Origin: a virus
Strand: one strand, 5' to 3'
DNA length: 64,000 nucleotides
IMG/VR virus record: IMGVR_UViG_3300045738_002037
Span: 64,001-128,000 of that record
The notes beneath the pieces are model-generated. The model saw only the letters and a list, made by a program, of their open reading frames with translations, had not been told where the DNA came from and did not search any database. The first letter of the stretch is position 1. Each line of letters starts with the position of its first letter. Positions 2,917-54,371 of this stretch are shown here, piece after piece. The translations under genes were made by a program, and so were the position numbers.

Positions 2917-3143
2917 TCTTCTTCTTCTATAATCGGTATTTCATTTGATTTTACAACAAGTTCAACATCTTCCAATTTACAATATATGTCATATTCAAAC
3001 CCCGCAACATTAACCGTAAGCATGTTATTGTCAGATGCAAAGGACACAGTCCCCGTAATATCTTTATTATGGCAAAATATTGCCGCTTCCGCTGTCACCC
3101 CAGATTTAAACCTAATGATGTCTCCGCGCGCGATTTTAATCAT
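2913..3143 (-). CDS. Small hypothetical protein (SH3/KOW-like)
   Basis: GDIIRF...GTV...EDVELV pattern; coupled to neighbours. Confidence 0.55.
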   Translation of the reverse strand: MIKIARGDIIRFKSGVTAEAAIFCHNKDITGTVSFASDNNMLTVNVAGFEYDIYCKLEDVELVVKSNEIPIIEEEE

Positions 3144-3147
3144 TAAT

Positions 3148-11441: not shown

Positions 11442-11763
11442 TTATCGGAGGACCCCAAGCTGATTTGTCAAACCCTTCTTTCTTTTTTAATACATTCTGA
11501 CTATTTTCGCTAATTATTGGGGCAGAAGACCCAAAAGCATTCCTATCAAATGTGGGTTTTTGCATTTCATTAATCTGACTTACAATTATTTCTTCACGTA
11601 AAGAAGATCTCTTTTTGAATTTATTCCTCACCATTTCTTTTTTACGTTTTTGCTTTCGTCTTACGGATTTAATCGAATCACGTTGCTTTTTTCTATTCCT
11701 CTTTTTATTCTTAAATGTTACTTTTTTCATTTGTGTTTTCCCAACAACTTCCATTTTTTCCAC
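11434..11763 (-). CDS. Lysine/arginine-rich hypothetical protein
   Basis: ORF fills gap; repeated FD(R/K)xA(F/W)G. Confidence 0.55.
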   Translation of the reverse strand: MEKMEVVGKTQMKKVTFKNKKRNRKKQRDSIKSVRRKQKRKKEMVRNKFKKRSSLREEIIVSQINEMQKPTFDRNAFGSSAPIISENSQNVLKKKEGFDKSAWGPPINE

Positions 11764-12923
11764 TTTTTGCCAATACTTATACTTAACGGAAACTTTGGAT
11801 TCTGCTCTAACACACCTTCAAATGGATTTAACATTATTGGAACTACCGTATCTATTATACATCTAATTTTTTTAGGATCATTTTCTGTCACAATTACAAG
11901 AGAGTCATGCACTTCTGCGATCAGTTTATTATCTAAAATTTCCCATATTTTTCTAATGACTAACTGCATAGCATGAACCACAGATCCCTGCATTGCCCCG
12001 TTTAACACAGCCAATTCATTTTTAGCATACTTTCTTTTAAACTTACGTCCTAAAATAGTTTCTAAAGATCCACCGTCTCTTTCGATTCTATCTTTACAAT
12101 TGGATATCCACTCCCCAAGCATGCAATAAACACCGCTAAGAGCCACACTCCTAAAATTCATAGAATTTATTGCCTTTAATAACATCAATTTACACTCGTC
12201 CCTACTTATCTCGCCAGCATGAGTTATTTTATCGCGCATATAAGCATATGGGTCGGATAATTCAAAAGACGATATCAATTCTGAATCATTTGACAATAAA
12301 GAAGCAACCCTAATATCCGCGCTAACCCAATCAAAATGAATAAACACTGAATTTTCACTCGCGCCTACAGCAGCGATGTGGTCTTTACTAGTCGTGCCTT
12401 GAATATTAAAACCAGTAGTCTTGCTTCTCCCAGAATACGTCTTCAATGACCATTTAGGATATCTATGGACAAATCCATGCAATATGCCGTTGTCCTCCAT
12501 ACTTTGATAAACCACAGACGCATTAGCTAATATTTTATGATATTCCTTAACATTAGCCTTTTGCATTTTATCTAAAACAGATCTAACGATAACATTGTCT
12601 TTAGCTTGACTTTTATCAGGCTTTATATCTGGTAAATGAATATCATAAACATTATATTGAGAACGCAATAAAGGCAACTCAAATTGTTTTATATGTGACT
12701 TAAAATCTGATATTACTATCGATTTTTTATTTTTATTGGCTTCTAATATTATTTTCTTTATTTCTTTTCTTGTATCTGCTATTGCACGATAGGTCTTGCC
12801 AGCGCCAGGACGATATAAATCCTTGACAATAGTTTTAGAGCCAGCCCGAATACCGGTACAGCGTGGCCTACCAGATGCAGGATCAAACAAAGTAAAAATA
12901 TATAAATAACGCATGTTAATCAA
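11727..12923 (-). CDS. Minimal family A DNA polymerase (no intact exonuclease domains); likely ATG at 12914
   Basis: SGR, motif A FDWVSADIR, motif B RDECK, NGAMQGS, motif C VHDSL. Confidence 0.85.
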   Translation of the reverse strand: MINMRYLYIFTLFDPASGRPRCTGIRAGSKTIVKDLYRPGAGKTYRAIADTRKEIKKIILEANKNKKSIVISDFKSHIKQFELPLLRSQYNVYDIHLPDIKPDKSQAKDNVIVRSVLDKMQKANVKEYHKILANASVVYQSMEDNGILHGFVHRYPKWSLKTYSGRSKTTGFNIQGTTSKDHIAAVGASENSVFIHFDWVSADIRVASLLSNDSELISSFELSDPYAYMRDKITHAGEISRDECKLMLLKAINSMNFRSVALSGVYCMLGEWISNCKDRIERDGGSLETILGRKFKRKYAKNELAVLNGAMQGSVVHAMQLVIRKIWEILDNKLIAEVHDSLVIVTENDPKKIRCIIDTVVPIMLNPFEGVLEQNPKFPLSISIGKKWKKWKLLGKHK

Positions 12924-13406: not shown

Positions 13407-13839
13407 TTACTACTTCATATGGAACAGGCTGAAGTTTGCAAAAAATAGCTCTTTCGGGAATTATTCTAACCGTCTTTCCAGCATAAACACCACTTTGAGA
13501 ATTTATAGTTGTCACAACTTGATTAGGTTGAAATAACACAACATCACCAACTTTTAACTGAGATGGTGTTCTAGCGCCATTTTGAGCTAACCCAGGACCA
13601 ACGCCTACTACCAATCCTTCCGGCTTAAGTTTAGATTCACCCGGAAGTTCAAGACCACCTTCTAAATTAATTTCAAATTGCAAAATTGCAGCAAAATCAT
13701 TATAACATGGAACTTCTCTGATTTTTATTGGCCCATCTGAAAATATTTCAGTTTCCATTATTAATGGGGACGGCGCTTCACGCGGATTTTTTCCTTCTTC
13801 TCTCTGCATCAACGTTTCACTTTTAGCAACATCAGTCAT
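13393..13839 (-). CDS. groES: Co-chaperonin GroES-like
   Basis: GGLELP, GLVVGVGPG, LKVGDVVLF. Confidence 0.8.
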   Translation of the reverse strand: MTDVAKSETLMQREEGKNPREAPSPLIMETEIFSDGPIKIREVPCYNDFAAILQFEINLEGGLELPGESKLKPEGLVVGVGPGLAQNGARTPSQLKVGDVVLFQPNQVVTTINSQSGVYAGKTVRIIPERAIFCKLQPVPYEVVNENA

Positions 13840-20776: not shown

Positions 20777-21313
20777 TTAAGTAACAGTCGACCATTGACC
20801 AGCGATTTTTCTAACATTCATTGCTTTATCTACAAATTCATTATATGCTTCTTCACACATATAAATATCAAGATATCTATCATCAACAACTGTGTCAGCG
20901 GGTTTTATAAATTCCTTGTTTCCACAATCCTTACATGGTTCACCCACTACCGCAGCATGCGCCCCGCAATCAACGCAAATATTTGGCTGGCCAGTCATTC
21001 TAACATCGGCCCGCACCACTTGACAAAAGTAAAATTCAAAAGTTCCAGTTAATACTTTTCCAGTTAAATCGCAGCAAACAGAATTTCTAATAGCTTTATA
21101 GTTCTTTTTAACATCTTCTGCCACATTCCCCATACATTTTTCACACACATCTAGCGAAAATATCACATTACTAGACAATATACTGTCAATTGGCGGTCTA
21201 AGATTATCATTTACAGTAACATTTCTTATATCAAAAGAATAATACCTAAAATCAGTTCTATAAGAAGTACCGCATACGTCACACGCAATACCATCACGAT
21301 CTTTAAGTTGCAT
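20777..21313 (-). CDS. Cys-rich protein with internally repeated zinc-finger module
   Basis: ACDVCG..LDVCEKC and CCDLTG..IYMCEEA halves, plus CVDC/CKDC. Confidence 0.7.
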   Translation of the reverse strand: MQLKDRDGIACDVCGTSYRTDFRYYSFDIRNVTVNDNLRPPIDSILSSNVIFSLDVCEKCMGNVAEDVKKNYKAIRNSVCCDLTGKVLTGTFEFYFCQVVRADVRMTGQPNICVDCGAHAAVVGEPCKDCGNKEFIKPADTVVDDRYLDIYMCEEAYNEFVDKAMNVRKIAGQWSTVT

Positions 21314-24006
21314 TATAGTTCTCTTTTTATTAACCTTAATATAACTTCGCCTCTGGCAAGAGAAAAACTCCTACGCTGCTCATCGTATTCTATTGGAGCA
21401 GATATCCCAACACCTTCTGATAATATATTTTTATCAAAAGTCCGTAAAGCCCGTTCCCACACAATTAACAAAATGTTCTGAACACCATCAGTTATTGTTA
21501 ATTTACACATAGTAGTATCATTTTTAGTTTTGGCATATTCTACATTAGTTATTACCGCTTCAACTATTGAATCTTCTCCCCTTAAATATGCTTTTTTAGT
21601 ACCTTCAATGTTTCTACCTTTAATTGTTTGATATAACTCTAATGGAGAATTAATGTAATAACCAAGAAATTCTTGCTCGAATTCTAATATCTCTGATATG
21701 TGAAAATTATCTTTATATAACGCCATGACCCTGTCTCTAATATCATCAGGAGTCGGTCTAAAATTTAATATCTTATTCGGAATTTTGTTTCTTTTTGGAT
21801 ATATTCTTTTGTATTCTATGATTTGCCGTTTAATTTCATTTTTAACCCATTGCTCTCCTTTTCCATCTGTGTCCAACAATTTTTGTTTTATCTCTTTGCG
21901 CAATTGAGTTATAACAACACCGCTGCAATATTTATATTGATACCACATCCACACTGCTTTATTATTGCCATGCCCCTTCATATCTTTAAACGCACCGAGT
22001 TTTATAAGGCGCTCCATAACTATTTTATTCTTGCCCATTGATTCGACAAATTCATCGACATTTTTAAAATCATGATCGCCAGCAAATTTTCCAGCTGCTT
22101 TCTCACCTATTTTCTTAATACCAATTAAACCTTGCAATACTATATCGCCACTAACAGAAAAGTTAACCGTTAAATTATTGGCGTCTAATGTTCCAAATTC
22201 AGTGCCTTCTGATCTTGCCACCCCCATATAACGTATTAACTTATCGGGATGGCAATCACTCATTACAGCAGCCCACCATTCAGGAGCAAAATGAGCTTTT
22301 AACCACAAACACCTATACGCAACTAAACAATATGCAACAGAGTGTGATTTATTGAAAGCATATCGCCCAAAAGTTTCCATCTTTTCCCACCATTCTTCGG
22401 CGGCATTATTCCCAATCTTTTTAGAGGCCCCCTCCATCCACTTTTGCTGTATGGGTCTTAACTTATGAACCCATTTTTTAGCAACCGCTTTGCGTGCCTC
22501 TTGAGCCTCAGGCGCAGTAAATCCACCTACTTTTTGCCATATTGCTTGCAATTGTTCTTGATAAACAATAACACCATATGTGTCTTCTAATATTGGCAAA
22601 ATATCTTCGTGTAACCTGTTCTTCCATGTGCCTTTTTTATCATCGCGGTTCTTTACAGCTTCTGGTATAGAGGCCATTGGCCCAGGATGACCCATTGCAT
22701 TTAACAACATTAAATCGTGAAAATTCTTAACGCCATTACCAAGAATTCTTTTCGCCAAATCCGTGTCAAACTGAAATATAGCGTCAGTTTTTGCTTCATT
22801 AGCCAATTTCAATGCGCCATGGTCATTAAGCGAAATATAGCGTTTTTTACCATTTTTAAAATAATGGCCAGCTCTATCACTGATAGGATCAATGTCATCC
22901 CATCCACTCATATTTTTACCAAATGATATTCCTCTATTTTGCTCTATTAATTTACAACAAGTAAAAATATATTTCAAATTCTTTAGTCCAAGTATATCCC
23001 ATTTATTATAGCCGAATTTAGATAATTGCGTGTTTCGCCCCTCTGTCCACATGCTAACCCAATAACCATGCCTCGCACTTTTGGCCATAGGAATATTGCC
23101 ATATAATGGCCGATCGGCTATTATAAGTGCCCCAGCGTGCATTCCCATTGTTCTAATTCGACCAACTAACCTAACAGCATAGGCTATAACATCGGGATAT
23201 TTAGTTTCAAATGCTGATAAATCATCAAATTCTGCAAGCAACTTGCCTATGGTTGGGCCTTCAGTTTCTTCACCGCCACATTCCGGACACACAGCACATG
23301 CATGTATATGGCCACATTCGTTTTCTTCATTGGTTTGTGAATCTATGATAATATGTTTACAAGTCGAAGCACCGCCATCTTTAAGATCATCAACATCATC
23401 CGGTAAATTGGTGGTTAAATCATATGCTTCTGATTTATCAACTATATTAGTCGCCCTAGCTACATCTATGATAGCAGACCGTAATTTATACGTTTGCCAC
23501 GTGCCAACACTACAAACAGAACCGTATTCATCATTACAATCTGAACCATAAACTTTAGCCGCATGGCTCTTGATCGGGTCTCTAGCTTCAGGAATGCAAT
23601 CTAAATCAATATCCGGCATATCTTGATCTTTAATTATATAGCTAGGTATTGACCCAATTTTATCAGAATATTCTTTAATTTTATCGAATTTAGCTGTGCA
23701 TAATATATCATTCTGCCCATCTAAAGGATCATCATCAACTACGCCAAGCAACCATGGCAGAACTAATTTGTTGGGGTTTTCTTTAAATTTCTTTTCTTCA
23801 TTTAAAATATTTTCCCAATACCCAAATGCACCTTGTTTATCAATTTCAGATAATTCAAATTCTAATCTATCCTTATAAACTCCAGGTAGTTCTGGTTTCA
23901 AATCAAGAGCTTGACGGGCCGCTTGAATAATGCTCTCTCTGGTATAAACAGTAACAATGGACATATTTGTCAATCTTCTAACAAATTGGATACTCAACCG
24001 ATACAA
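21313..24006 (-). CDS. dnaE: DNA polymerase III alpha subunit (DnaE), lacking PHP domain; alternative start 23964
   Basis: PDIDLD, HAGALII, KWDILGL, IFQF, YQEQ, YAFNKSHSVAY, C-terminal OB fold. Confidence 0.93.
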   Translation of the reverse strand: MYRLSIQFVRRLTNMSIVTVYTRESIIQAARQALDLKPELPGVYKDRLEFELSEIDKQGAFGYWENILNEEKKFKENPNKLVLPWLLGVVDDDPLDGQNDILCTAKFDKIKEYSDKIGSIPSYIIKDQDMPDIDLDCIPEARDPIKSHAAKVYGSDCNDEYGSVCSVGTWQTYKLRSAIIDVARATNIVDKSEAYDLTTNLPDDVDDLKDGGASTCKHIIIDSQTNEENECGHIHACAVCPECGGEETEGPTIGKLLAEFDDLSAFETKYPDVIAYAVRLVGRIRTMGMHAGALIIADRPLYGNIPMAKSARHGYWVSMWTEGRNTQLSKFGYNKWDILGLKNLKYIFTCCKLIEQNRGISFGKNMSGWDDIDPISDRAGHYFKNGKKRYISLNDHGALKLANEAKTDAIFQFDTDLAKRILGNGVKNFHDLMLLNAMGHPGPMASIPEAVKNRDDKKGTWKNRLHEDILPILEDTYGVIVYQEQLQAIWQKVGGFTAPEAQEARKAVAKKWVHKLRPIQQKWMEGASKKIGNNAAEEWWEKMETFGRYAFNKSHSVAYCLVAYRCLWLKAHFAPEWWAAVMSDCHPDKLIRYMGVARSEGTEFGTLDANNLTVNFSVSGDIVLQGLIGIKKIGEKAAGKFAGDHDFKNVDEFVESMGKNKIVMERLIKLGAFKDMKGHGNNKAVWMWYQYKYCSGVVITQLRKEIKQKLLDTDGKGEQWVKNEIKRQIIEYKRIYPKRNKIPNKILNFRPTPDDIRDRVMALYKDNFHISEILEFEQEFLGYYINSPLELYQTIKGRNIEGTKKAYLRGEDSIVEAVITNVEYAKTKNDTTMCKLTITDGVQNILLIVWERALRTFDKNILSEGVGISAPIEYDEQRRSFSLARGEVILRLIKREL

Positions 24007-31837: not shown

Positions 31838-32220
31838 TACGATGTAGACAAAGAAACAACTGGGTCAACAGCATGATTGGCGTACCCCGCAGAGCCAACC
31901 TGTAACAGCCCTGGCAATCGTAACCATTCTTGTTGACCATGATTCCAACCAGTTTGCTGGCCGGAACCACTTTCGAGTCGAGTTACAGACTCACCGGTTA
32001 AAGCTGCCTGAGCTTCTGCCGTTGTAACCCTGGCTTTATCATCTTTAACTACAGTAATGTTCGATGGATATGCTATTTTGCCTTCTTTGTTTGGCGGCAC
32101 TTGCACAAAACCATTAATAATTGGAAAATCCCTGTATATGTAAATATTAGCCATATTATTTTTCCCTATGTGTTTAAACATCTCCCCATGTGATTCATAA
32201 TTTATGTTTGGTCGGGCCAA
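31837..32220 (-). CDS. Hypothetical (putative virion) protein
   Basis: Directly downstream of the giant ORF. Confidence 0.6.
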   Translation of the reverse strand: MARPNINYESHGEMFKHIGKNNMANIYIYRDFPIINGFVQVPPNKEGKIAYPSNITVVKDDKARVTTAEAQAALTGESVTRLESGSGQQTGWNHGQQEWLRLPGLLQVGSAGYANHAVDPVVSLSTS

Positions 32221-44200: not shown

Positions 44201-47200
44201 ACGGATTGGCGGTTTCATTTAGAGCGGGGTCGTACTCGGATACGGTCTTACCAGATGGCGCTCGAGCTTTAAATGAATTGGGACTGACACTTTGATCGAC
44301 GTATGCATCATAACGACTGCCCACCGGAACATCGTCAGCACTTAGCAATTGATAAGTGAATTTCACGTTGTCATGGCCAGGGACGCTGCCAAGCTGGTTT
44401 CCGTAGCCGCTGCCGCCTCCAGGCATCACAATCGACGGCCATGTGGCAGATATTTGATAATCACCAGCTGGCAGATCACGAAATTTCCAAGTCGCTGTTA
44501 ATAGGTCTGGCCCATGTATCGATGGCATATCCTCTGAAGAAAAAGCAATCTCATAGGACCCACCCCAGACTGAGTTTGGATTGCCGCCTTTTCTCCAATC
44601 GACGTCGTCATGCATAATATAGCTCTGATAGCCCCCGCCGTGGGGCATCCTGAGAAATTCTGTCTTCTTTCCTGCGATCCGGGAAGTATAATTCTCGTCG
44701 TAATTGTCAATTATATATGTGTTAACTGTAGGAAGGCGACGCGGGTCAGGGCTTTTTCCATACAAATAAACTTCAAACTTTGAAAAATATCCACTATTGT
44801 CAAATCTTATTGTCTGACCTATTCTATCCGCGAACCGGCCCGGTAGTGTCGGTTGTGCTACGGAGCTAAAAATAGGAGAATCATTTTGAAGATATGGAGG
44901 ATATATTGTCGCTAATGTAGTGTCAGTGTTAAGTTCACTATTCCAAATAATTTGCGGGCTGGACATAGCCCCATAAGGATGCGTTTGTTCCTCAATAAGC
45001 TGCTTTTGATCTATCACAGAAGTTGAAATATTATCTAATAAGGTTAATTCAAGCGGTATGTGCTCACATAATAACAATGTGCCGTTCGAATTAAATGAAC
45101 TATAAACCGACGTCTTGTGGGTATTATATTGTTTAAACGCTAATTTAGCTTTTGGTATATCGTTATCATCATGAACTCTTACTCCAGTCCCAGAATTCTT
45201 GCTGATTCTTTTAACTGGAACTTTAGTAACAGGGTCTAAACCGGATTCTAAAAAATCACCTGAATATTTGACATCCGGCAGATCCATACTAGGAATCGTA
45301 CCAACATAGTCATATACTGCGCTTTTTAATTGTTTTGGAACAGTCCACTTAGAAGCAGGGCCACCACTAGGAGGGTCATCTGAATCTCCAGACAACTGAC
45401 CGATAAATAGATCACCGCTTGGCCCAAGTGGAATTGGCAACAATGTTTCAGAATCATACGTTCTTGACGTTCCACTATATGACGGATAAGTCACAAGCAC
45501 GTCAGACGTCGCTGACAAAGTTTGACCATTTTGATCACGTCTATATCCAACTTCAAATCGTTTTACATATCCTGTTCCATTTACTATATCATTTTTAATG
45601 CGGTCATCATCCGTATCGCCACTAGAATAAGTTTTAGACGATGTATTAAACGACGATCTGGACGAATTCATTCCGACATTATCTAAAATGGTTCTATAAT
45701 CATTAGACTTCATCGCCGTAGAACTGATTAAATCTAAATCACTTTTAACAACCCAATTTGCCGCATCATCATAAGATGTTACAAACGATGCGCCAGTTAT
45801 ATTAAATGGTCCAGACCCATTGCCGTCATCCCAAATATGAGCATCAAAACTTACATCTGCGTCATATCCGCCACTAGAATCCGGTACAGGAGAACCGGGG
45901 CGCGGAACAAGATAATCATTTGAAATTAATTCATTGTCTTCTAAATAAACCGCCACTCCATCTTTAGCGCCAGCCCCATCTTTCTTATACACAAAAAATA
46001 GCCCAGTAAAATTCGTGTATGGCGGTTGTCCTTGTGTGGAACCAGTAAGAGCAGTCGGCGGTTCATTTTTAGCCCATGGTCTGGTGTTTCGACCAGGGAC
46101 AACAATATTGCCTAACACAGAAACCTTGGGGCCTTCCGTGCCAGCGCCAATCACTTGGAATACTTGTTGCTGAGGATTATAAATGATGGAATTAGTACAT
46201 ATAGCACTATTTTCTTTACCAACATAACCATTGGCAATATTAAAAGGATCTCTTTTATTAAAATGGGCAAATACACATTTTTTAATTTGAACTTTGTTTA
46301 CACCAGAACCCATCGATAAACCAGCAGATTGACCTTGCGCGCCCTCTAAACCTTCCGCAATTATAGAATTTTGAATTGTTACATAGCTAACTTGCCCTTC
46401 TATATTGGCACTATAGTCCTTTGGTTCTATATCAACTATTTCATCAACACCCCACGACAACGAACAATGATCAATCAAAATATTTTTAAGAACATTGCCC
46501 CAAGGCTTATTGTGCCTATACTTAATTTGCAAAGCATCAGAAGATTCACCATTGGTCTTAGTTGACCGATGCCAGCCGGATCTTATAGCAATATGTCTTA
46601 ATAAAACATGGGGCGCTTCAATTGCTATAGACGCGCCGATTACAGTTATTCCAGGTTCAGGTGCAGTCTCGCCAGCAACAACGCAATTTGGTTCCGTAAC
46701 GACCATGTTTAACATACGCTTATAAACGTTAGGCTGAGGATTAATCCTAGTGCTTTTTCTAAGATCAATAATACCGCCTACTTCAAACACAATAATTCTT
46801 TCACCAGGAGTCGATAAGGCATGGTGAAGAGTTATGTCGCCTTCTACATAATCCGGATCAGTATCATCTGCCGCTAGAGAATTAACTTTTATGACTTTAA
46901 CACTATCAGAATCTGAATTATCTGGCGAAAATTCACCGCTAATAACTAGTTCTGCGTCTGAAAAGCGGATTTCATTATCACTAATATTGCCGCCACTGTA
47001 TCCAAATAATAATATATGATGGTCTATTGTGTCCGGCGCACTACCGCTAAATATTACTTTCCCAGGAGCAATAGCAGTCATCAATACGTTAAAAAATTCA
47101 AATTCACTAGGCCCAACTGGCGATAAACCATCCACACCGCCAGCGTGCTCAATGCTTCCTTCTTTAAGATTGCCCGCTTGACCAAAGCCGTCATACGGAC

Positions 47201-48077
47201 TTACATGCCCAATGGTGCCTTTATCTTCTGTTAAATCCTTATTATAAGTGATATTTAAATAGGCAGCGAATATCCCAGATGAATAAGCAGGATTTTGGTC
47301 TTCTCGTAAATCTTGAACAAACGCGCGAATATAATATTCTTCGCCCACGTTTATATTAGATATAGGATTACCACTTGCGTCAGTAGCGGCAATCCTAATC
47401 TGCACTAATTCATGGCCAGACAACGGCGACACCACATTGCCAACAATAGGTACAATGTCTGGCATTGACATTGAAGACGGCACTTCAGGAACAGCGACTG
47501 CTTCAACAACACCAGGGACCAATGGCTGATCCTCTGGAACAAGCTGCACCAACCTCTTTACATTATTATAATATTCTGTGCCAATAATAGAAACTAAATT
47601 GCCGGATAACACAGTCCCAAATGTACCGCCACTACTGTGATCCCATGCAAACAATTCCCCGCCGGGAGTTATATAATAATATTGCCTACCTATATTTCGA
47701 CTATCATAGAACGGCGCTCCAGTAGAATTATATTCTACGAACCAATTGCCGGTTATCCATTTTTCATTTTCGCCACCAAAATTAAGATAATGATTAGCAC
47801 TACCACTTAAAGCAAATTCGAATACAGAAGCATCAAAATCACCCAACACTAATACAGAATTCGCTTGCTTTCCTTGCGGCGAATCAGCTGGAAAAGCTTC
47901 GATCTCTTTTTGCGTAACACTGATTAATTCGACAAACGTGGACTGGCCTATTTCATCATTAAAACCAACATTGTCCCACACAGAATTGTCGGAACTTGGT
48001 TGCGCATTATTGCCGCTCTGACCAACGGCTTTCCGCACTGCATCAAATCCATCAGACATAAATATACCGTCTTTCAA
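32202..48077 (-). CDS. Giant (5,291 aa) mosaic adhesin/polysaccharide depolymerase; probable ATG at 48059
   Basis: Two pectate-lyase-like beta-helices (RIIVFEVGG, VAGETAP, IDHCSLSWG), cohesin-like VQDLR..GIFAAYL, golvesin-like ATWKF..YQISATWP..ADAIRI, YWTD-type repeats, poly-Thr linkers. Confidence 0.85.
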   Translation of the reverse strand: MKDGIFMSDGFDAVRKAVGQSGNNAQPSSDNSVWDNVGFNDEIGQSTFVELISVTQKEIEAFPADSPQGKQANSVLVLGDFDASVFEFALSGSANHYLNFGGENEKWITGNWFVEYNSTGAPFYDSRNIGRQYYYITPGGELFAWDHSSGGTFGTVLSGNLVSIIGTEYYNNVKRLVQLVPEDQPLVPGVVEAVAVPEVPSSMSMPDIVPIVGNVVSPLSGHELVQIRIAATDASGNPISNINVGEEYYIRAFVQDLREDQNPAYSSGIFAAYLNITYNKDLTEDKGTIGHVSPYDGFGQAGNLKEGSIEHAGGVDGLSPVGPSEFEFFNVLMTAIAPGKVIFSGSAPDTIDHHILLFGYSGGNISDNEIRFSDAELVISGEFSPDNSDSDSVKVIKVNSLAADDTDPDYVEGDITLHHALSTPGERIIVFEVGGIIDLRKSTRINPQPNVYKRMLNMVVTEPNCVVAGETAPEPGITVIGASIAIEAPHVLLRHIAIRSGWHRSTKTNGESSDALQIKYRHNKPWGNVLKNILIDHCSLSWGVDEIVDIEPKDYSANIEGQVSYVTIQNSIIAEGLEGAQGQSAGLSMGSGVNKVQIKKCVFAHFNKRDPFNIANGYVGKENSAICTNSIIYNPQQQVFQVIGAGTEGPKVSVLGNIVVPGRNTRPWAKNEPPTALTGSTQGQPPYTNFTGLFFVYKKDGAGAKDGVAVYLEDNELISNDYLVPRPGSPVPDSSGGYDADVSFDAHIWDDGNGSGPFNITGASFVTSYDDAANWVVKSDLDLISSTAMKSNDYRTILDNVGMNSSRSSFNTSSKTYSSGDTDDDRIKNDIVNGTGYVKRFEVGYRRDQNGQTLSATSDVLVTYPSYSGTSRTYDSETLLPIPLGPSGDLFIGQLSGDSDDPPSGGPASKWTVPKQLKSAVYDYVGTIPSMDLPDVKYSGDFLESGLDPVTKVPVKRISKNSGTGVRVHDDNDIPKAKLAFKQYNTHKTSVYSSFNSNGTLLLCEHIPLELTLLDNISTSVIDQKQLIEEQTHPYGAMSSPQIIWNSELNTDTTLATIYPPYLQNDSPIFSSVAQPTLPGRFADRIGQTIRFDNSGYFSKFEVYLYGKSPDPRRLPTVNTYIIDNYDENYTSRIAGKKTEFLRMPHGGGYQSYIMHDDVDWRKGGNPNSVWGGSYEIAFSSEDMPSIHGPDLLTATWKFRDLPAGDYQISATWPSIVMPGGGSGYGNQLGSVPGHDNVKFTYQLLSADDVPVGSRYDAYVDQSVSPNSFKARAPSGKTVSEYDPALNETANPWSVPPPGLVLITSATWEILASTPNPDGILTVEEGQSIEVIMYQHEGLVVFPETEMRVPVFADAIRISTDHASDVGSLWQRGTSRSAGWDPTCEQSLSGTMSVEIIDGDDLSAAGASLASFHIDVNVTGDGQWVSLDLINTLYPKGVPVAAGQTVSVILHSTRNFLFPDANTLKTSLLARTQEQTNTISPFCIATANSPYGNVGNGTSEWPEILGKYDPTDILSGRRYSAIINHGDRIWRTVNTYYPNAAEIVADIEVLLPKDASFDDHGFEHLPGKGYNNTISRCKVNRAEDAAEEIIYYTQNYWQANEHDIPIAMGFQQRGIVTVRNDAIEFGHGNKGYDEHALARDPQLSGSVARVMGGHRHVGLRFHSEFDIGGREIESAELIMYMPPDRLAENSTQGSIDTHLNNAGQVDFDGKWYAEDSNEPDEWSEENAYLYEFKVRFVDPILDQSATGKQDAEQRMDGVGNGLIEVGDFPGDNGQLRFGKYPDVTSHGGASASGIPIPTAFSGQLVTRAVGFMFHGSEISDDLVGKKIKSAVLILNGADDYDPDHETFIEGGDQNVYGKLYGELSSGSNVKAYPFVDTYESSLSDEVSVLSRNRTTAYKTFNFTGSERAFRNFECDVTEVTQEILDDGKSILSYMWVPDEETLNGDAAFRTIVGSRHSLKGEDFAPRLRIIVEPGDDSKLISKRERTTEFVIGKSDEDHHGYDGEEYEGSHLYALKRVKVNVTSLIKELASKYSNNLHYFNLFWIDQAAGNQALLTPGFYNSKSFHSMGWGKDHYTNPDARKRQPSRTDTEWGSVNGVPPSLHQHFDGTSPFNLADDPDNEYISDLASIVYNTMGNSPWSPELKISFKEESTSTQDGIFPYDLKFRAYLADDTAEGGVIVYDGAGPQKAVKKIEEGSGPGKDNTNTKGLLVRSLEDNLPPGAYSGDIDGTVFDYEPLLALEAAFQHDVDGSDGFLTGHDLDPKSIKWMPSDFCVIDNYGHSRIQGISEDYIDGQNLTVGIDANDRRILKVIKLDTDGETPVKKRKRFPFYILNCASSVPVHKTVVLDNGESVERSYMAVIGTPYGSCDTVGGLRCDAAGGSTGSNDTWTDNVTNRPVTAHGAYNGDLWLYIINLNSILESTTSDYGEEVIAAFNLSGVNEREIYESYYNHPAFATSFITGIGGQDTGLWPTELFASVSDPGTIHVRQDIVTVDGTNYFVGPDEESLQFSQDGRHVLVKYAGVDVQGKSRDIWRMFDVGDFAYKATNPSWSRPFADDSRKPSVDRKPNVLVGQNEIQRFTVSWSNTSNASFRIFKRYKNHPDRTAIIPASVFRSAGGLTGNDRQNNYSSSKFEKYMERQFNNYSPAGLNYHRSTTDGNRVWAENPDACVVRFVSNVKARGKPETYRRSVGSKIVERGWPGRPDVYTVVFDVEWSGTKGNTPPAGTNQIIHYLAAYDRLRTVFGSRPARYMEPTGRVEIIQEGTYCNPHIWLNRAESKAFGYNCEPGQPRRTLIPLVAAVVAGVTVVDNLVGPIYRPGTSGNAVADYKDYGIRPHNFSYLDTGLLDGRGTDQGGHLLTDRGATRGVIPLNQISALSFAYGQKFLDITTAAPDQFLAIASDSWADVTIADSYDCTGLVRTTTTTTTTAVPDITVQKLYYVSNSDNNGLPNTIRRWPPERLELGKNKWLDAPNDEILVSDQDGATDIAIDNINQKMYWTIATSVQNSSIPNPAGAVPSVGKIMRADLDGTNVEDITPPGGRSINPHGIALDVVRGKMYWLEDHVDDSAARGEVRRANLDGSGEQLLTTTDPPLQSSKSLTLEEVPNYFTSKSAPTDNIISDIKTYNLGSSIESIVYSGALRLITGSRGSAKLTFPASVDLTNILVENVQSGPKALFSTGTQLSPLGYTYTATKTTFFPFKPEPNYHFAAVESLFYGIQDSTGSQLVGKQSWMPVNKVSEVVVMLDRQWLVQDIYRPPRSPVIGQYNTRLRYHIYKGYCSDAALAIAKRQMTAAAFRTYKRDCQNRCIRNGQYYYPSQSPCSFNNNHALDKYIADSGYFGFDIDNQKFLRNLHPVCERRPHDAPAYDSIGVVDRVPYPPYTSADTASGETRKHDVYEGTILRYFGAPVARDPVKDGPGVFDYSYGDPGYEAYRKSHSFAPNMTGSQTKVFSWPIPASIDLLFIDPWGNTPLSSDHISGLKDWLALGHKRLVILGGHHSDFANHKTGSAYHDLVQQLDVGITVKNVHVGASSNWRAKRSSGHPLVDGGASRLEHLGLYRPSRLALDLENGHMYWTEYATADADGPYPGRLRRANLSGSSKVILRDGLTGIDNVRGIDLDVKNQHIYLSTVETIPPRTNDNRYPEHGTAKILKLDFDGSDVSTVGSRLPRGVLFNYHYSLGPQSPNDIILDLDNQYVYVANHMAYERTADIAKGDHIQRFGFGGDGSVILSLQVCPPATATGVALAKVVMPAFDVQLQDADLLRHIAGGVIPLYDSKDDIYPNGRIGRIVVLNCTKSSEFEDRVSYEINPRKGFWSCPDNWAALSNPTSVKFESQQYEAKIYDITGLQNPIRLRSGGRRDFSTLHAAYAFVAYGPDREYNADNTINITGGLYRDEIVAYNVEDPNVGMVRLTHTRTNAWTKGVPGSGGKPAVVLPEPEGNISTEFSDVSDVNVLKVTTLSPTGPGSLYEALTTQGPRIIVFEVGGVIDFRNADELQGESAGRDVILPINIDIPNCVVAGETAPDPGITIIGTALLVRASNVLIRNIYIRHGDHDKASTGIEATGQGVALGVIAHGPDPTIENILIDHCSLSWGLQACAKIQPSTVAGSTCRYITFQNCIISEGLSSPTGAPGLLMSAADAETGSNHILVKRCLYAHIGVAGPFDNTSARAQGQMANSAICVNSIIYNPQFHAASVSGAGLSGPQLAMLGNIVVPGLFTKAYRKNRLSNLEGGNEYSHDGTDFTGLLYVRSQSAETIAIYLNDNELIKNAHLTGDGGFDYDVSIDARRSDPPWNGISGTPVTSFVNSYAATGLNDWLNKDTDLDLITSAVLKVDNYSILLNDVGANTSRSSFNGVAYSGGDSIDDRIKNELLNLTGGILLGLEQGSETKAGWEDAVGGYPTYDLVSRIYDPSTLDPVPIGPNGNHIVGKDGYDPSTDSFADPFYAKPNLIVSSDGTKLVYNSTWTGEGGTHVNAPYGPYVPGYHLLIDLVEAQLVGPVDGTTTTTTTMPPDSNSRNGIGVLETPVAEFSGQGDYLPFVCEVVNVILKPHADFFRDSPTETCSPAGSCLINPIVTTGSAADHNNDERMTVPGLVWSGLSGYNTLSNGTVVNNGIGPFYPNIIDPDDGKFVQSWGQIFAERELIIGFNGVDMNPGDNSGPHVDVNWNEVIAINKATLTLKFDNIQQQQFDLLPSDGIGTEITLYKDIHNYSPYGEPCAIDQFEISKVYPSPCRNPNHSFFAAEHFRRTISRSSDINPRQLPSTWAEDRDVRVTHDNKIDVCPEVFDGSCDRLNGLFVGIRRLSWSRASVGGANNIIAAVETIPLSDGGDILGEVVLIADTTFLMYESFSRGGQTGLSGLANNRENQQFMVNLYPECNPTVGASASVVNVVGYKSFAENDRNYPINMLRVFGSRNLFPAAQGLYVKGGHVGPISGTDSNGRDLAFAKLVMIDPLTVLSPDDVQNIKNWMLLGEGRRVVVVYEYEVADTSRARAILEALGTKMRPDPQDRVTNAGTWQARPISGHPIIDGIDPYDANDLAGRSIRLCDKISTVFYGGIVPIDFNNGNARPLLLGGIVCPNYPDCEDNPEAQDSAPRYNGTKLLSMSLELELEICDEIVPHTTTTSSTTTEEPDISTNASDGGVILGNISGSGFGSSCLPEALQTEICLDFVPPPPYDYPEKYVPDPKDFEEVIVEPCALVLTANKSVRLELERDLFDPNRTYEGSLATVKLLTRAKGYDVNKYAPYLRVGNRLRATSYDTVVATGMSIILVDKSMDVSRREGLILDRITSREILPDRMRWPDQT

Positions 48078-48572: not shown

Positions 48573-49403
48573 ATGCTTACATTAAAAATTTCCGACTCAA
48601 TAACTATCGGCAATAATGAATTAGCAATAATAACCGGGCCGTGTGTCATCGAATCTAGAGACATGGTGCTGACAATAGCTGAAAAAATAAAAGAAATCAG
48701 CGAAGAATTGTCTATTCCAATAATATTTAAAGCATCATTTGACAAGGCCAATAGAAGCTCTATAAAATCCTATAGAGGGCCAGGAATAGATGATGGACTA
48801 AAAATATTAGACGAAGTTAAAAGCCAATTCGGTCTATCTGTAACAACTGATATCCACGAGCCATCGCAAGCTGCTAAAACAGCAGAAGTATGTGATATTT
48901 TACAAATACCAGCCTTTTTATGCAGACAAACAGACCTGTTAGCAGCTGCCGCTAGCACTGGCAAAACAATAAATGTTAAAAAAGGTCAATTTATGGCACC
49001 ATGGGATATGAGCAACGTTATTAACAAATTATTAGAATGTAACAATCCTAAAATTATGCTTACAGAAAGAGGCACGACATTCGGATACGGTAGACTAGTA
49101 AATGATATGCGGTCAATACCGTTAATGCGCAAATTTGGATACCCAGTAGTGTTTGACGCAACACATAGCGTACAGCTTCCAGGTACTGGCGGCGATAAAA
49201 CTGAAGGCGAAAGGCATATGGTTCCGACACTTGCTAAAGCAGCTATCGCATGTGGAATTGATGCTTTGTTTCTTGAAACCCACCCAGACCCAGATAATGC
49301 TAAAAGCGATGGACCAAACATGATCGAATTGCACAAACTACGCAATTTACTCACCGATTGCCTAAAAATACATAAAGTAATCAGGGAATGCCGCGAAAGA
49401 TAA
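48573..49403 (+). CDS. kdsA: 3-deoxy-D-manno-octulosonate 8-phosphate synthase
   Basis: GPCVIES, KASFDKANRSS, QIPAFLCRQTDL, KKGQF, ERG, DATHSVQ, SDGPN. Confidence 0.96.
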   Translation: MLTLKISDSITIGNNELAIITGPCVIESRDMVLTIAEKIKEISEELSIPIIFKASFDKANRSSIKSYRGPGIDDGLKILDEVKSQFGLSVTTDIHEPSQAAKTAEVCDILQIPAFLCRQTDLLAAAASTGKTINVKKGQFMAPWDMSNVINKLLECNNPKIMLTERGTTFGYGRLVNDMRSIPLMRKFGYPVVFDATHSVQLPGTGGDKTEGERHMVPTLAKAAIACGIDALFLETHPDPDNAKSDGPNMIELHKLRNLLTDCLKIHKVIRECRER

Positions 49404-49943: not shown

Positions 49944-50372
49944 TTATTTATCTGCCCACTTTTTAACCATGCGCAATATACGGCCTTGTTCTTTTTTTGC
50001 CGCTGTAGATGAATCGAACAAATAAGATTCCGGCATCCATTCCTCTTCATTGCTAATATAAAAGAATTCACCTGTGTCTTCGCTCCTAGCAACATCGCAA
50101 ATCTCGAACTGTTCTACTTCAAGCTTGGAAGTTAAAAACATAACTATTGCTTGAAAATCTATGTGATTTAATTTAGGCAAATGTGCCCTTGAATTCCATA
50201 CATTTTTAGCTATTCTTCTGTCATAGAAAACTTTAGGATGATGCTCAAGCATCCACTCATCGCCAACAGGCACCATCACATTAGTAGCACCAACCGGTCT
50301 TAATGTTACCCACCAAACCGATTCGCCTACTTTATATCTTGATAATTCTAGTACTGATCTTATCGGGGGCAT
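49944..50372 (-). CDS. Hypothetical protein
   Basis: ORF in gene run; YKVGESVW. Confidence 0.65.
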   Translation of the reverse strand: MPPIRSVLELSRYKVGESVWWVTLRPVGATNVMVPVGDEWMLEHHPKVFYDRRIAKNVWNSRAHLPKLNHIDFQAIVMFLTSKLEVEQFEICDVARSEDTGEFFYISNEEEWMPESYLFDSSTAAKKEQGRILRMVKKWADK

Positions 50373-50649: not shown

Positions 50650-51435
50650 TCATTCTGCTATTTTTAAAAATTGTTCATAACTTTCTTTAAAAATATCCTG
50701 TTTATTCAGTCCATCAGAAATTCTTTTTCCAAGACCAAACTCCATAAAGTACCAACCATTATAGCCAATTCCTTTAGAATCATCAATGGTTTGTTTTATC
50801 ATAGAGTCGCCAACGCCAACAACTTTAAACCCATATCCTATTTTATAGTCCCTAACATCAATCGCTGCGACGAATTTTCTAATATTTTTCCAATATTTAT
50901 CAAAGGGATTTATGTTTCTTTTAGTAATTAATTGCACTGGGTCATATAATAGCCGCCAGTGCCTATTATTGCCCAACAATTCTAATATAATTGGAATATC
51001 ATGGCTATATGGAAAATCATCGGTTATTTCAAACAATGGAATAATACCAGCTTTAGCGCATTCGGAGGCAATCAACGCCATCCAATCATTTATAATGTCT
51101 TTATTTCTACTGGCGTTTTTTATTCCACCGAATATTCTAACATAATTAGCTTTGAAATATCTTGTAATAGATAAAGTTCTATCAATTGTTTCTGAAGATA
51201 TATTTCCTAAATCATTACAATCAATAAGACCGAGGTTAGACGCAACCATCGGGACAGATAAGGAATACTTATCAATTATTCCTTTAAGCTTTTGACACGT
51301 AGAATCGCTAAGATCGCAAATATTGCCGGTCCAAACTTGGCGAATTACAACATGTTTAATATCACATTCCTGCAAAGTTTGACATGCTACATCTGGGGTA
51401 TCGCCTGCGTCATTTAAATAGGCTGCTATTTTCAT
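50650..51435 (-). CDS. Sugar phosphate isomerase/epimerase-like TIM barrel (AP endonuclease 2 superfamily)
   Basis: YVRIF, LFE, LYDP, DVRD, VGVGD, GYNGWYFME; ATGA overlap with purZ. Confidence 0.75.
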   Translation of the reverse strand: MKIAAYLNDAGDTPDVACQTLQECDIKHVVIRQVWTGNICDLSDSTCQKLKGIIDKYSLSVPMVASNLGLIDCNDLGNISSETIDRTLSITRYFKANYVRIFGGIKNASRNKDIINDWMALIASECAKAGIIPLFEITDDFPYSHDIPIILELLGNNRHWRLLYDPVQLITKRNINPFDKYWKNIRKFVAAIDVRDYKIGYGFKVVGVGDSMIKQTIDDSKGIGYNGWYFMEFGLGKRISDGLNKQDIFKESYEQFLKIAE

Positions 51436-52547
51436 AAATACGCCACATGGTCAATTTGTGGCCCAGTGCCCACAATAGTCACTGGCAACAACACCAAATC
51501 TTCGATCATTTCGATGAATTCTTGAACTTTTGCCGGTAATTTTCCGTAATCGTTGGTCCCATAACATGACCAATCAATATAATTAGCAAAATTTAACGCG
51601 ATCTTTGTCGCACCATTTACTACAACAGCTTCTTGTAATTGAATTTTAGAAAGCGAAAACACTCGGCGTAACCTTTTGGTCACTGTGGTAAGTTCACCTT
51701 TCATTACTTCTGGAGGCGCGCCTGCGGTTTCAGCAACTTCGGCCCATGTGATCTCTTGATGGTCATCATAACAATCACCCGAATACCCAACAGTTTCTCC
51801 ATTTTCCACCACATTGCCGACCCTAATGGGATATGGCCTAATTACTAAATATACGTCTCCAACTTTATAAGGCGAAACGCCCATATCGGCTAAATTGTAA
51901 ACAGCAGTTGTGCCTCTGCTAGTACAATGGGGATAGTGGGATCCGTGATTTATATCTAACGAAAACCCCTGCGCGCCTTCATGCAATATCGTGTTGCCAT
52001 CATTCATTAGCTTATTTAAATGTGTTGGCATGTAATAATCTTTAACGTTTGGAACATATGGCAATAATTCTTTATAGTCTCTAGCAAGCTTCAGTCCCGG
52101 TTTTCTCATTGCTTTATCTGCTAAAAAGGCACCACAGCCTTGCATCGTGCTAGCAACACTTTTCGTTCCAGTTTTTAAATTCTCCTCTGCTTCTTTATGC
52201 TCATGCGTGATCACACCGGCTCTGGGGTGTATCACAGTATTTTCAGCCACATCGCATTCATCTATTTCTTTTAGCATCTGGTCAATGGTGAACGCGGCTG
52301 AAGGCCCAACTAGTATAGATGGGCTATATTCTCCATCGGTCCATTTTTTTAAAATGGCAGCGGAGGGCAGCGCTTTAGCCACAAACGCATCGCCGTTGAT
52401 ATTGATCGCCGTATGGCCAGCATTGGCCATGTTCGTGGTAGAAAGGACTTCTGGTTTATACCGGTCAGCCAACGCAGAAGTAATTAAGCCCTTCCCACAG
52501 CTTCCCCATTGCCCATCTGTTATAATATTAAATTTCCCTGCTTGCAT
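51432..52547 (-). CDS. purZ: PurZ-type N6-succino-2-amino-2'-deoxyadenylate synthase (PurA homologue)
   Basis: DGQWGSCGKG (Ser for catalytic Asp), NMANAGHT, EGAQG, YPHCTSR, PIRVGN, ELTTVTKRLRRVF, LNFANY. Confidence 0.82.
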   Translation of the reverse strand: MQAGKFNIITDGQWGSCGKGLITSALADRYKPEVLSTTNMANAGHTAININGDAFVAKALPSAAILKKWTDGEYSPSILVGPSAAFTIDQMLKEIDECDVAENTVIHPRAGVITHEHKEAEENLKTGTKSVASTMQGCGAFLADKAMRKPGLKLARDYKELLPYVPNVKDYYMPTHLNKLMNDGNTILHEGAQGFSLDINHGSHYPHCTSRGTTAVYNLADMGVSPYKVGDVYLVIRPYPIRVGNVVENGETVGYSGDCYDDHQEITWAEVAETAGAPPEVMKGELTTVTKRLRRVFSLSKIQLQEAVVVNGATKIALNFANYIDWSCYGTNDYGKLPAKVQEFIEMIEDLVLLPVTIVGTGPQIDHVAYL

Positions 52548-52608: not shown

Positions 52609-52977
52609 TTATCTAAGAGAAGAAGAAACTTGGACATCATATCCATCGTCTTCCCAATTTTTATGTTGCGCTTCTTTATTTAATTTGCCAACTGAAGACG
52701 TAGATTTGTCCAATTGACTAATAGCGTCGGGCAAAGGCATAACTTTGACCACTGCGTCAATTACATCATCTTCTTCCATTTCAATAATAGCCACAAGATT
52801 TTTCTCTTGTAACTTAATTTTATATTTTTGGGCTATTAATATAGCACCTAATTCATCAGCTAATTTAGACATTTGTACTGAGATATAGCGACGTTGCGAA
52901 TCAAGCCATTCATCAGATCTGGTTAAAAGATCGGCATCTTCGCCTATTTCATGAATCATGCTTAATATGTTCATCAA
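52609..52977 (-). CDS. Hypothetical protein
   Basis: ORF in gene run. Confidence 0.55.
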   Translation of the reverse strand: MMNILSMIHEIGEDADLLTRSDEWLDSQRRYISVQMSKLADELGAILIAQKYKIKLQEKNLVAIIEMEEDDVIDAVVKVMPLPDAISQLDKSTSSVGKLNKEAQHKNWEDDGYDVQVSSSLR

Positions 52978-53275
52978 TTTTTACCCAAGTGTCAGGAACC
53001 CAAGTCATCATCCCATGAAGTTCAATTCTAACTAGTTTGTGCTTCCTATCACGAACTATCGCAATTTCATCATGCCAAGGATGTTCTTTATTATTTATTT
53101 TTACAATTGTGCCCTCTTCTATTTCTGGAATTTCTACTTTTAAATGTTTTGAACCACCTATTTCCACATGTTCAATAATTATATTTACTAATTCTCCACA
53201 AATTTTGCATCTATTGGCATCATCTTTATTTATTATGTTACTTGTTCCACATTTCTGGCAAGTTATAGTATTCAA
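52949..53275 (-). CDS. Zinc ribbon plus KOW/SH3-like protein
   Basis: CQKC/CKIC; GTIVKI..HPW. Confidence 0.6.
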   Translation of the reverse strand: MNTITCQKCGTSNIINKDDANRCKICGELVNIIIEHVEIGGSKHLKVEIPEIEEGTIVKINNKEHPWHDEIAIVRDRKHKLVRIELHGMMTWVPDTWVKIDEHIKHDS

Positions 53276-53961
53276 CTTAAAATCTCTTTTAATTGATCAG
53301 GCTGTCTTTGCACTTCTTTAATTATGTTTTTAATCTGAGCTAAACTAACAGCATATTTATAAGCATCTTTACATAACATTATAGATTTTACATCTTTTAT
53401 ATTACCACTAACTTTTATCGGCACACTTATAATTTCTTTTATTTTGCTAATCATCTCATTGTGTATATCTGGATTAGCTTTACTAACTTGCAATTTTAAT
53501 TGATGATTTGTTCGTAAACAACTTGGAGACGGCACAAATTTCATTGCTTCGCAGATATCTGTAATATTTTCATCAGAATGGTGCATGCCAAGAACAAATC
53601 TTATCTCAACAGTTGGCGAAATATGGTTTCTAACAAAATCAGTTAAAACAGACATTTCGTTTTGACAATCCGCTTGAGACCTGCCCCCGGATAATAAAAA
53701 CTCAAATCCATCACAACTTAAAGAATCTATGGTCAATCCTCGTAATTTAGTATCACCATAGCATTCCCCTTTAGGCCAGTCAACCGGAGTCAATATTTTA
53801 AATTTACCCTGCCATTTGATCCTTTGCAACAAAGCATCAGCAGATATTTCTGGGTGAACAATTATAGACGGAATCGCATATTTCACGGCTAACTCTGCAA
53901 CATCCGCTAATTCATTAGACTGCATAACATCTATTTCAATATTATTGAACAAAGCATTCAT
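53272..53961 (-). CDS. DeoC (deoxyribose-phosphate aldolase)-fold protein, degenerate active site
   Basis: IIVHP, VDWPKG, IKVSGNIK; KTSTG Schiff-base motif appears as RTNHQ. Confidence 0.6.
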   Translation of the reverse strand: MNALFNNIEIDVMQSNELADVAELAVKYAIPSIIVHPEISADALLQRIKWQGKFKILTPVDWPKGECYGDTKLRGLTIDSLSCDGFEFLLSGGRSQADCQNEMSVLTDFVRNHISPTVEIRFVLGMHHSDENITDICEAMKFVPSPSCLRTNHQLKLQVSKANPDIHNEMISKIKEIISVPIKVSGNIKDVKSIMLCKDAYKYAVSLAQIKNIIKEVQRQPDQLKEILS

Positions 53962-53975
53962 GTTACACCTTTATA

Positions 53976-54371
53976 TCACTTAGAAGATAATTCTATAACT
54001 TTTTTGATAGCTTCGGAACTATCACAAGTTTTAAATACTATAGGATTATTTTCATCAGTCAAATAATGAAATGATGTGGGTACATAGTCCTCTTCTTCCA
54101 TTAAAATAACTATTGGTATATTTTTAGCATATGCATAGCCAAATTCAAAGTGTGATCCTTTTCTTGCTGGCGTAACCATTAAGATACAGTCAGAATCATC
54201 CACCCCCCTAACCTCTGCCAAAGCGATATTCATCAATTCACTTTCGTCATCACAAAAACCGTGGAGCGTCCAATCATAAGTTATAGTAACGCCATGTTCT
54301 ATTAACTGATCTCTCAGTTGGCGAACTCTATCTTTATTATTAAGGCTAGACGCTATATAAACGTTTTTCAT
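53976..54371 (-). CDS. Nucleoside 2-deoxyribosyltransferase / nucleotide N-glycosidase family
   Basis: VYIAS, SDCIL, GSHFEFGYA with catalytic Glu, NIPI. Confidence 0.82.
   Translation of the reverse strand: MKNVYIASSLNNKDRVRQLRDQLIEHGVTITYDWTLHGFCDDESELMNIALAEVRGVDDSDCILMVTPARKGSHFEFGYAYAKNIPIVILMEEEDYVPTSFHYLTDENNPIVFKTCDSSEAIKKVIELSSK

Follow-up and report, generated by a model that had tools for sequence, protein, structure and literature searches.

Here we describe a gene for a putative enzyme of the PurZ type in a 64,000-nucleotide stretch of viral DNA (hereafter the window), which corresponds to bases 64001-128000 of a 156,696-bp contig of the IMG/VR collection (record IMGVR_UViG_3300045738_002037). 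PurZ belongs to the pathway of 2-aminoadenine (Z), the base that takes the place of adenine (A) in the DNA of some phages. The gene in question is the following:

51432..52547, minus strand: PurZ-type (ATP-type) succino-aminodeoxyadenylate synthetase homologue of 371 amino acids (aa), as assigned from PF00709, PHROG 1211, matches in the Protein Data Bank (PDB), key residues and trees

The open reading frame (ORF) is intact, starts with an ATG that has GGAG 9 nt upstream, and stops at a TGA that overlaps, as ATGA, the ATG of the next gene, which encodes a triosephosphate isomerase (TIM) barrel. Homology extends over the full length of the protein (Pfam PF00709, Adenylsucc_synt, 8e-40 and 137 bits; PHROG 1211, "2-aminooxy adenylosuccinate synthetase", 5e-63), and the PDB matches include the PurZ enzymes of phages phiVC8 (5e-41) and S-2L (1e-39), PurZ0 of phage Archimedes (8e-19) and Escherichia coli PurA (1e-19). 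Three motifs pointed out in an earlier note on this DNA are all present in the minus-strand ORF: the P-loop G15-S16-C17-G18-K19-G20 (GSCGKG, residues 15-20), the substrate loop E285-LTTVTKRLRRVF-297, i.e., ELTTVTKRLRRVF (residues 285-297), and the nucleotide-specificity segment L317-NFANY-322 (LNFANY, residues 317-322).

Residues That Separate PurZ From PurA and PurZ0

The synthetase was compared in an alignment of 22 sequences, comprising E. coli PurA, one PurA from a phage, three PurZ0 and five PurZ of the characterized type, together with two other proteins from phages and ten homologues from jumbo phages. The catalytic residues that all family members share are retained (K16, N38, H41, T129, R143, Q224 and R305 in E. 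coli numbering), and the following positions discriminate between the groups:

E. coli Asp13: Asp in PurA, Ser in PurZ0, Ser in characterized PurZ, Ser16 in the window
E. coli Lys331: Lys in PurA, Met or Phe in PurZ0, Phe in characterized PurZ, Phe319 in the window
E. coli Asp333: Asp in PurA, Asp in PurZ0, Asn or Gln in characterized PurZ, Asn321 in the window
E. coli Val334: Val in PurA, Gln in PurZ0, Tyr in characterized PurZ, Tyr322 in the window

The PurZ-specific changes carried by the synthetase are D13S, K331F, D333N and V334Y, and Ser occupies the Asp13 position in all 12 relatives. The protein has neither the GDEGKG loop with its catalytic Asp nor the (T/S)KxD guanine motif of PurA, and in place of the Asp333 and the GSEAKG P-loop of PurZ0 it presents Asn321 and GSCGKG. 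Since PurZ0 keeps Asp333 and the window has Asn321, the base pocket is, as read from the alignment, of the ATP type known from phiVC8 and S-2L and not of the PurZ0 or PurA type.

In a recent metaGPA preprint, 12 positions of phiVC8 PurZ were described that separate contigs with dZ, the deoxynucleoside of Z, from contigs with deoxyadenosine (dA), two of them, F295 and Y298, being tied to the ATP-type base pocket (bioRxiv 10.1101/2025.10.22.683976). Ten of the 12 are identical or conservatively replaced in the window (Trp for F12, S14, P144, P233, Y244, W252, T262, S273, F295 and Y298) and two, I34 and G256, differ (phiVC8 numbering throughout). A Nucleic Acids Research paper assigns "ATP and GTP, respectively" to PurZ0 and PurZ, in conflict with its own Introduction, where PurZ uses ATP; on account of that Introduction and of the residue evidence, ATP is taken here as the PurZ cosubstrate.

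One detail of the earlier reading needs correction. Leu had been placed at the position of PurA Arg303, while an ungapped alignment of TTVTKRLRR with GATTGRRRR puts Leu293 at Arg304 and Arg292 at 303. Arg is also found at this position in PurA and in the PurZ of phage Bm1, the phiVC8 type having Lys and S-2L having Leu.

Phylogeny and Distribution of the Synthetase

An exhaustive HMMER search collected 444 representatives at E<=1e-30, and among the top 150 the P-loop Ser is present in all 129 with a detectable P-loop. In a FastTree phylogeny of 157 rows, with bacterial-type PurA as outgroup, PurZ0 (support 100) is sister to all else, and the window belongs to a 12-row jumbo-phage clade nested in a larger one of 63 rows (96), of which the characterized PurZ clade is likewise a part. 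A quick IQ-TREE run (LG+C20+F+G4 PMSF, with support from the Shimodaira-Hasegawa-like approximate likelihood ratio test, SH-aLRT) included 8 short archaeal PurA among its 80 rows; all eight carry GDEGKG and branch below the Ser-containing clade (SH-aLRT 99). PurZ0 again forms a separate clade (SH-aLRT 100) and long PurA lies outside PurZ-proper, a 57-row clade (SH-aLRT 100) that includes the clade of characterized PurZ, another of Bacillus phages, and one of 27 rows (SH-aLRT 98) to which the window, its relatives and Flavobacterium phage MaF61 belong. The earlier note had taken the protein for an ATP-type PurZ, distinct from PurA and PurZ0, and had proposed a phylogeny of the three as a check, naming a grouping with PurA as refuting; no such grouping occurred, and the residues, PHROG 1211 and the two trees, short archaeal PurA included, uphold the assignment.

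The lineage is large. Synthetases of 45-70% identity are carried by 13 related viral contigs of up to 408 kb, two of which reach completeness ratings of 100% (408 kb) and 98% (354 kb), and more than 120 related protein clusters at at least 58% identity occur in metagenomes, many of them on contigs 100-400 kb in length. One or two inteins split the sequence of some homologues (L014:4809-8504 on the plus strand, P0001 and about 14 other representatives of 730-1200 aa), with matches to Intein_splicing, LAGLIDADG_3 and Hom_end.

In a collection of 50,697 phage records, the best identity found was 37% for the synthetase and 32% for the DnaE polymerase of the same contig; hence there is no cultured close relative. 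Megablast of 13 kb around the synthetase gene against these records gave no match, and a search for related loci in prokaryote genomes returned one Bacillota PurA only. The Ser-type matches in the collection all lie in genomes of 38-67 kb, except that of the 168-kb isolate MaF61, which bears out the previous statement that characterized Z phages are small and of mid-to-high GC content (S-2L 69%, the phiVC8-like phage H3 50.5%). The 735-kb LR756501 and 207-kb MD-2021a phages encode true PurA with GDEGKG.

The Conserved Neighbor Module

In close relatives, tblastn and blastp delineate a co-oriented block with the order 326-aa protein, NDT-like protein (NDT, nucleoside 2-deoxyribosyl transferase), 229-aa protein, 108-aa protein, protein of about 121 aa, PurZ, TIM barrel, 142-aa protein and 134-aa protein. 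The corresponding genes of the window, together with one gene outside the module, are:

53976..54371, minus strand: NDT-family protein of 131 aa (nucleoside/nucleotide 2-deoxyribosyl transferase or N-glycosidase; PF05014 38.1 bits, cut-off 28.8; PHROG 7995)
53272..53961, minus strand: barrel protein of 229 aa with a deoxyribose-phosphate aldolase (DERA)-like fold (AF2 model with pLDDT 86; Foldseek)
52949..53275, minus strand: conserved Cys-rich protein of 108 aa, with weak PHROG matches, kept in 7 relatives
52609..52977, minus strand: conserved protein of 122 aa between the DERA-fold gene and PurZ, without Pfam or PHROG match, at the same position in 8 relatives
50650..51435, minus strand: TIM barrel of 261 aa with a sugar-phosphate isomerase/epimerase fold (PF01261 26.3 bits, below the cut-off; AF2 pLDDT 83)
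49944..50372, minus strand: conserved protein of 142 aa downstream of the TIM barrel, without family match, shared by 10 related loci, among them L008 and L009
49434..49940, minus strand: dCMP/cytidine deaminase-family gene outside the conserved module (PF00383 1e-14), without homologue in the 13 related loci

The NDT-like protein belongs to the family not only by its Pfam score but also by its Tyr5, Asp61 and Glu76, a triad invariant among 7 homologues; a DWTxHG motif is invariant as well. The gene is present in 9 of 11 relatives, in most of them 1.3-2.5 kb from PurZ. Its alignment by hhalign with DmtZ of phage Ghobes (gp53, recognized as such from the published DmtZ residue numbers) is weak (E 0.0019, probability 14%), and pairs WTLHG with WTLHG and Glu76 with Glu103. 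NDT enzymes are already tied experimentally to Z pathways in the literature of 2025-2026: DmtZ hydrolyzes deoxyadenosine monophosphate (dAMP) and transfers deoxyribose-5-phosphate to Z (PMC12884076), and for an NDT taken from dZ contigs, dA is the preferred substrate (preprint).

For the 229-aa protein, whose homologues are present in 10 of 13 related loci, the leading Foldseek hits of the model in the PDB are DERA structures (6d33, TMq 0.74, E 7e-10), and comparison with the DeoC family in Atlas gives TM 0.81. At the sequence level, no relationship to DeoC appeared in Pfam, PHROGs, NCBIfam, a PDB profile search, or hhalign to E. coli DeoC and to a 15-sequence DeoC-family alignment; since all of these failed, the link to DeoC is one of fold. 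Strand 6 of the model reads C148-L-R-T151 with an invariant Arg150, the nearest invariant lysines being K156, in a low-confidence loop, and K183, in strand 7. The TIM barrel, which adjoins PurZ in 8 relatives, best matches in the PDB the L-xylulose-5-phosphate 3-epimerase UlaE (TMq 0.75-0.78) and also resembles related sugar isomerases.

The Genome That Carries the Gene

The contig encodes a major head protein, a portal, baseplate wedge and hub proteins, and a ribonucleotide reductase. In the window there are, besides a DnaB-like helicase (gp41 role), a gp32-like single-stranded DNA-binding protein, RecA and an SbcC/gp46-like ATPase, two polymerase-like genes:

21313..24006, minus strand: DnaE-like DNA polymerase III alpha, candidate replicase (PF17657 1e-28; PF07733 7e-18)
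11727..12923, minus strand: small PolA-family polymerase-like gene of 398 aa (PF00476 33.4 bits, just under the cut-off of 34.3)

The small PolA-like gene recurs, 400-450 aa long, in each of the five relatives tested. These data support the view that the synthetase gene resides in a tailed jumbo phage (about 360 kb) whose polymerase is of the DnaE type, in a lineage of roughly 350-410 kb. The DnaE and the gp32-, gp41- and gp46-like genes that the earlier note had reported for a jumbo genome are thus present, and the relatives measure 354-408 kb. That genome had also been called visibly AT-rich, which holds for the window (37.9% GC) and the contig (38.5%); nevertheless, the 17-kb loci of the relatives range from 38 to 56% GC, and AT-richness is therefore not a trait of the clade.

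A Proposed Z Pathway and Its Weight

The gene is counted in favor of an active PurZ because of its intact ORF, ribosome-binding site and translational coupling, its residues and its place in the trees, the size of the clade, the inteins, the linkage to NDT-like genes, and a lyase gene found in the closest relative, G001. It probably encodes an active PurZ in a large uncultured lineage of jumbo phages, in which PurZ lies in the block with the NDT-family, DERA-fold and epimerase-fold genes and is not paired with DatZ, MazZ or DUF550. The earlier note is borne out in part: the enzyme type and the kind of genome are supported, and its inference that this phage can make dZTP is a plausible reading. 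Judged from its sequence, the enzyme very likely makes dZ nucleotides; that virion DNA holds Z appears somewhat favored, and that the replacement of A by Z is complete appears rather doubtful. Sequence reads report Z as A.

In the proposed scheme, PurZ would condense deoxyguanosine monophosphate (dGMP) and aspartate, with ATP, to form N6-succino-2-amino-2'-deoxyadenylate, here dSMP, as the phiVC8 and S-2L enzymes do. An adenylosuccinate lyase, either from the host or a phage copy as in G001, would then yield dZMP, which kinases would raise to the triphosphate dZTP. In turn, the NDT-like enzyme would lower the dA or dAMP pool, as DmtZ does in PurZ0 phages, and the DERA-fold protein and TIM barrel would handle the released deoxyribose or pentose phosphate. 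Substrate use and these roles of the partner proteins, on deoxyadenosine nucleotides or nucleosides and on deoxyribose phosphate, are inferences of ours. The purB-like adenylosuccinate lyase of G001 (L191:1277-2326, minus strand, 349 aa; TIGR00928 275 bits, model positions 2-351 of 436) is consistent with the step from dSMP to dZMP, and no such gene was found in our contig or in the two complete relatives. In its widest form, which we consider on the unlikely side, the scheme would have widespread phages of about 350-410 kb replicating largely Z-DNA with DnaE, adenine being excluded along a third route, without a dATPase, by an NDT-type enzyme acting on dA or dAMP, and a retooled DERA-fold protein and an epimerase-like barrel clearing or recycling deoxyribose phosphate.

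Several observations weigh against an active PurZ in a Z-replacing phage. The contig has a CheckV completeness of 43%. Family searches of whole records for HD, HD_3, YfbR-like, MazG, MazG-like, PRA-PH, DUF550 and DUF5664 found none in the contig or the two near-complete relatives, the DUF550 search matching its positive controls in S-2L, PMBT28 and Barton; the sole match of these helper searches is one HD gene in a distant relative. Likewise, tblastn with S-2L DatZ and MazZ, phiVC8-type DpoZ and Ghobes DmtZ gave no match in the contig. The whole-genome search for datZ, mazZ and DUF550 that had been recommended thus returned none of them in the contig or in the relatives of 98-100% completeness, and the pair that marks the canonical Z cluster, a dATP triphosphohydrolase of the HD type and a dGTP/dATP pyrophosphohydrolase, is lacking in all three. 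No full-length DpoZ-like PolA was found in the contig by tblastn, and a PolA family search of five relatives retrieved the small 400-450-aa gene only.

On the side of the proteins themselves, the best PDB E-value of the synthetase is that of Pyrococcus horikoshii PurA (1e-45), and the curated PurZ model of NCBI, NF038379, is matched with 220 bits against a cut-off of 300, close to the score obtained with the archaeal-type PurA model NF003295 of NCBIfam (228 bits, below its cut-off of 368). Because it falls below the NCBI cut-off, the synthetase is, on these scores, a divergent sister lineage of the sequences behind the PurZ model, outside the narrowly defined set. Position 303 contacts the 2'-OH in PurA, and with the same Arg there, the synthetase may not favor deoxyribose over ribose. 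Furthermore, the 229-aa protein seems to have no Schiff-base lysine, Arg150 occupying its strand-6 place according to the strand register of the model. Since the helpers are absent, the incorporation of Z and its extent, up to full A-to-Z replacement, remain inferred.

The complete relatives possess two dUTPase-family genes, both far from PurZ, and our contig has neither. The second of them, dUTPase/Dcd-like and of about 190 aa, adjoins ThyX (L032:1203-1778; L033:1282-1836 and 1860-2678). It was considered as an analogue of DutZ and set aside, as its distance of 20-43 kb from PurZ and its place beside ThyX make an ordinary Dut or Dcd more likely.

A separate observation concerns a more distant contig of 48 kb with a 53% identical PurZ. 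Some 3 kb upstream of that gene, L011:4606-5025 weakly matches gp38 of Acinetobacter phage Barton by tblastn (E 3e-4), perhaps because this lineage has kept a DatZ-like gene.

Alternative Explanations

A true PurZ could act in a phage that replaces A partly or not at all, dZ serving a transient change of the pool, a partial anti-restriction modification or a sink for dGMP, with no dATPase and A retained. The missing homologues of DatZ, MazZ, DUF550 and full-length DpoZ-type PolA speak for it, as do the two dUTPase-family genes of the relatives, which look ordinary, one of them beside ThyX. Adenine exclusion in S-2L was reportedly attributed to DatZ by Czernecki and coworkers in 2021, a point that counts in the same direction. 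On the other hand, PurZ has a conserved NDT-family gene as its neighbor, and enzymes of this kind lower dA or dAMP in other Z phages; moreover, the retention of PurZ across a large clade, even with inteins, suggests an important role. On balance, we regard this explanation as rather unlikely.

The other two alternatives concern the reaction itself. The enzyme might accept GMP or another 2-amino purine nucleotide instead of dGMP, leading to 2-aminoadenosine nucleotides or to a precursor of hypermodification. Arg at position 303, shared with PurA where characterized PurZ have Lys or Leu, would fit, and so would the sugar-phosphate-type barrels next to the gene and the several glycosyltransferases of the window. 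However, Burkholderia phage Bm1, inside the characterized PurZ clade, also has Arg at 303, and the other positions named in the literature for the dGMP pocket (F12, S14 and T262, phiVC8 numbering) are conserved or conservatively replaced, which makes this possibility improbable. It is still more improbable, to the point of being nearly negligible, that the gene encodes a short archaeal-type PurA acting as an auxiliary metabolic gene, which would form adenylosuccinate from inosine monophosphate and boost the supply of AMP during infection. The P. horikoshii match and the 228 bits with the archaeal-type model point that way, and other huge phages (LR756501, MD-2021a) do carry true PurA. Nevertheless, Ser stands in place of the catalytic Asp13, and Phe and Asn in place of K331 and D333, which specify guanine; the eight archaeal sequences, all having GDEGKG, are not part of the Ser clade (SH-aLRT 99), and the cut-off of 368 of the archaeal model is missed.

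Comparison With Known Systems

The synthetase shares with the characterized PurZ of phiVC8 and S-2L the fold, the catalytic set, Ser at the Asp13 position, the ELTTVTK loop and, in both trees, the PurZ-proper clade, as well as the replacement of TKLD by NF(A/C)(N/Q)Y that gives the ATP-type pocket. It differs from them by an identity of 33-37%, by its place in a sister subclade and by Arg at 303. The phage itself has a genome about 8 times larger, without adjacent datZ or mazZ and without DpoZ or PrimPol, and presents instead DnaE-like and small PolA-like polymerases.

With the PurZ0-DutZ-DmtZ system of Gordonia phage Ghobes and Arthrobacter phage Wayne, the window has in common a synthetase of the PurZ group and an NDT-family enzyme in place of DatZ (PMC12884076), and the NDT-like protein keeps the positions of the Tyr/Asp/Glu triad and has a WTLHG motif in common with Ghobes DmtZ. 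In contrast, the synthetase of the window is not PurZ0, no dutZ is adjacent or fused to it, and the DERA-fold and TIM-barrel partners are additional. Short archaeal PurA, as that of P. horikoshii (PDB 5K7X), resembles the synthetase in length (about 340-370 aa) and gives it the best overall sequence score, one that includes the C-terminal domain; unlike the synthetase, it keeps GDEGKG and branches outside the Ser-containing clade.

MaF61 (PQ858689), a cultured Flavobacterium myovirus of 168 kb, resembles the window in its PurZ-like protein, which has a GSSGKG P-loop and an NFVNY motif and belongs to the same 27-row subclade (SH-aLRT 98), whereas this protein, encoded at L020:5983-7326, measures 447 aa, sits on a long branch and is 31% identical over 65% of the query. 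The description of this phage is silent on the PurZ-like gene and on any base modification (PMC13269007). A literature search retrieved no paper linking jumbo phages with PurZ or aminoadenine beyond incidental mention.

Implications for Z Biology

A jumbo-phage PurZ lineage would extend Z biology to a DnaE-type replication machinery and to genomes about 8 times larger, and would raise the question of how adenine is excluded, if at all. To our knowledge, the Z-genome phages with chemically analyzed DNA are all small siphoviruses or podoviruses (about 38-67 kb), which combine PurZ with DatZ/MazZ or DutZ/DmtZ, usually with a dedicated PolA or PrimPol. The three partner proteins described above are candidates for new enzymes of the nucleotide pool. 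If the lineage proves common in viromes from aquatic habitats, Z-DNA might distort the results of sequencing and of methods that rely on restriction. The cultured MaF61, as a member of the same PurZ subclade, constitutes a direct experimental entry point.

Other Features of the Window

Positions 32202-48077 on the minus strand, immediately downstream of the PurZ block, are taken up by one ORF of about 5,290 aa (15.9 kb), across which the GC content rises to 41-44%. A KdsA-like gene (DAHP_synth_1), several glycosyltransferases and a BNR-repeat protein (48573-49403, plus strand; 1361-5241, minus strand; 27286-28353, plus strand) represent functions of the sugar and LPS type, suggestive of a Gram-negative host or of glycan modification. 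Finally, a Cpn10 (GroES)-like co-chaperonin gene is located at 13393-13839 on the minus strand, with 32 bits to PF00166.

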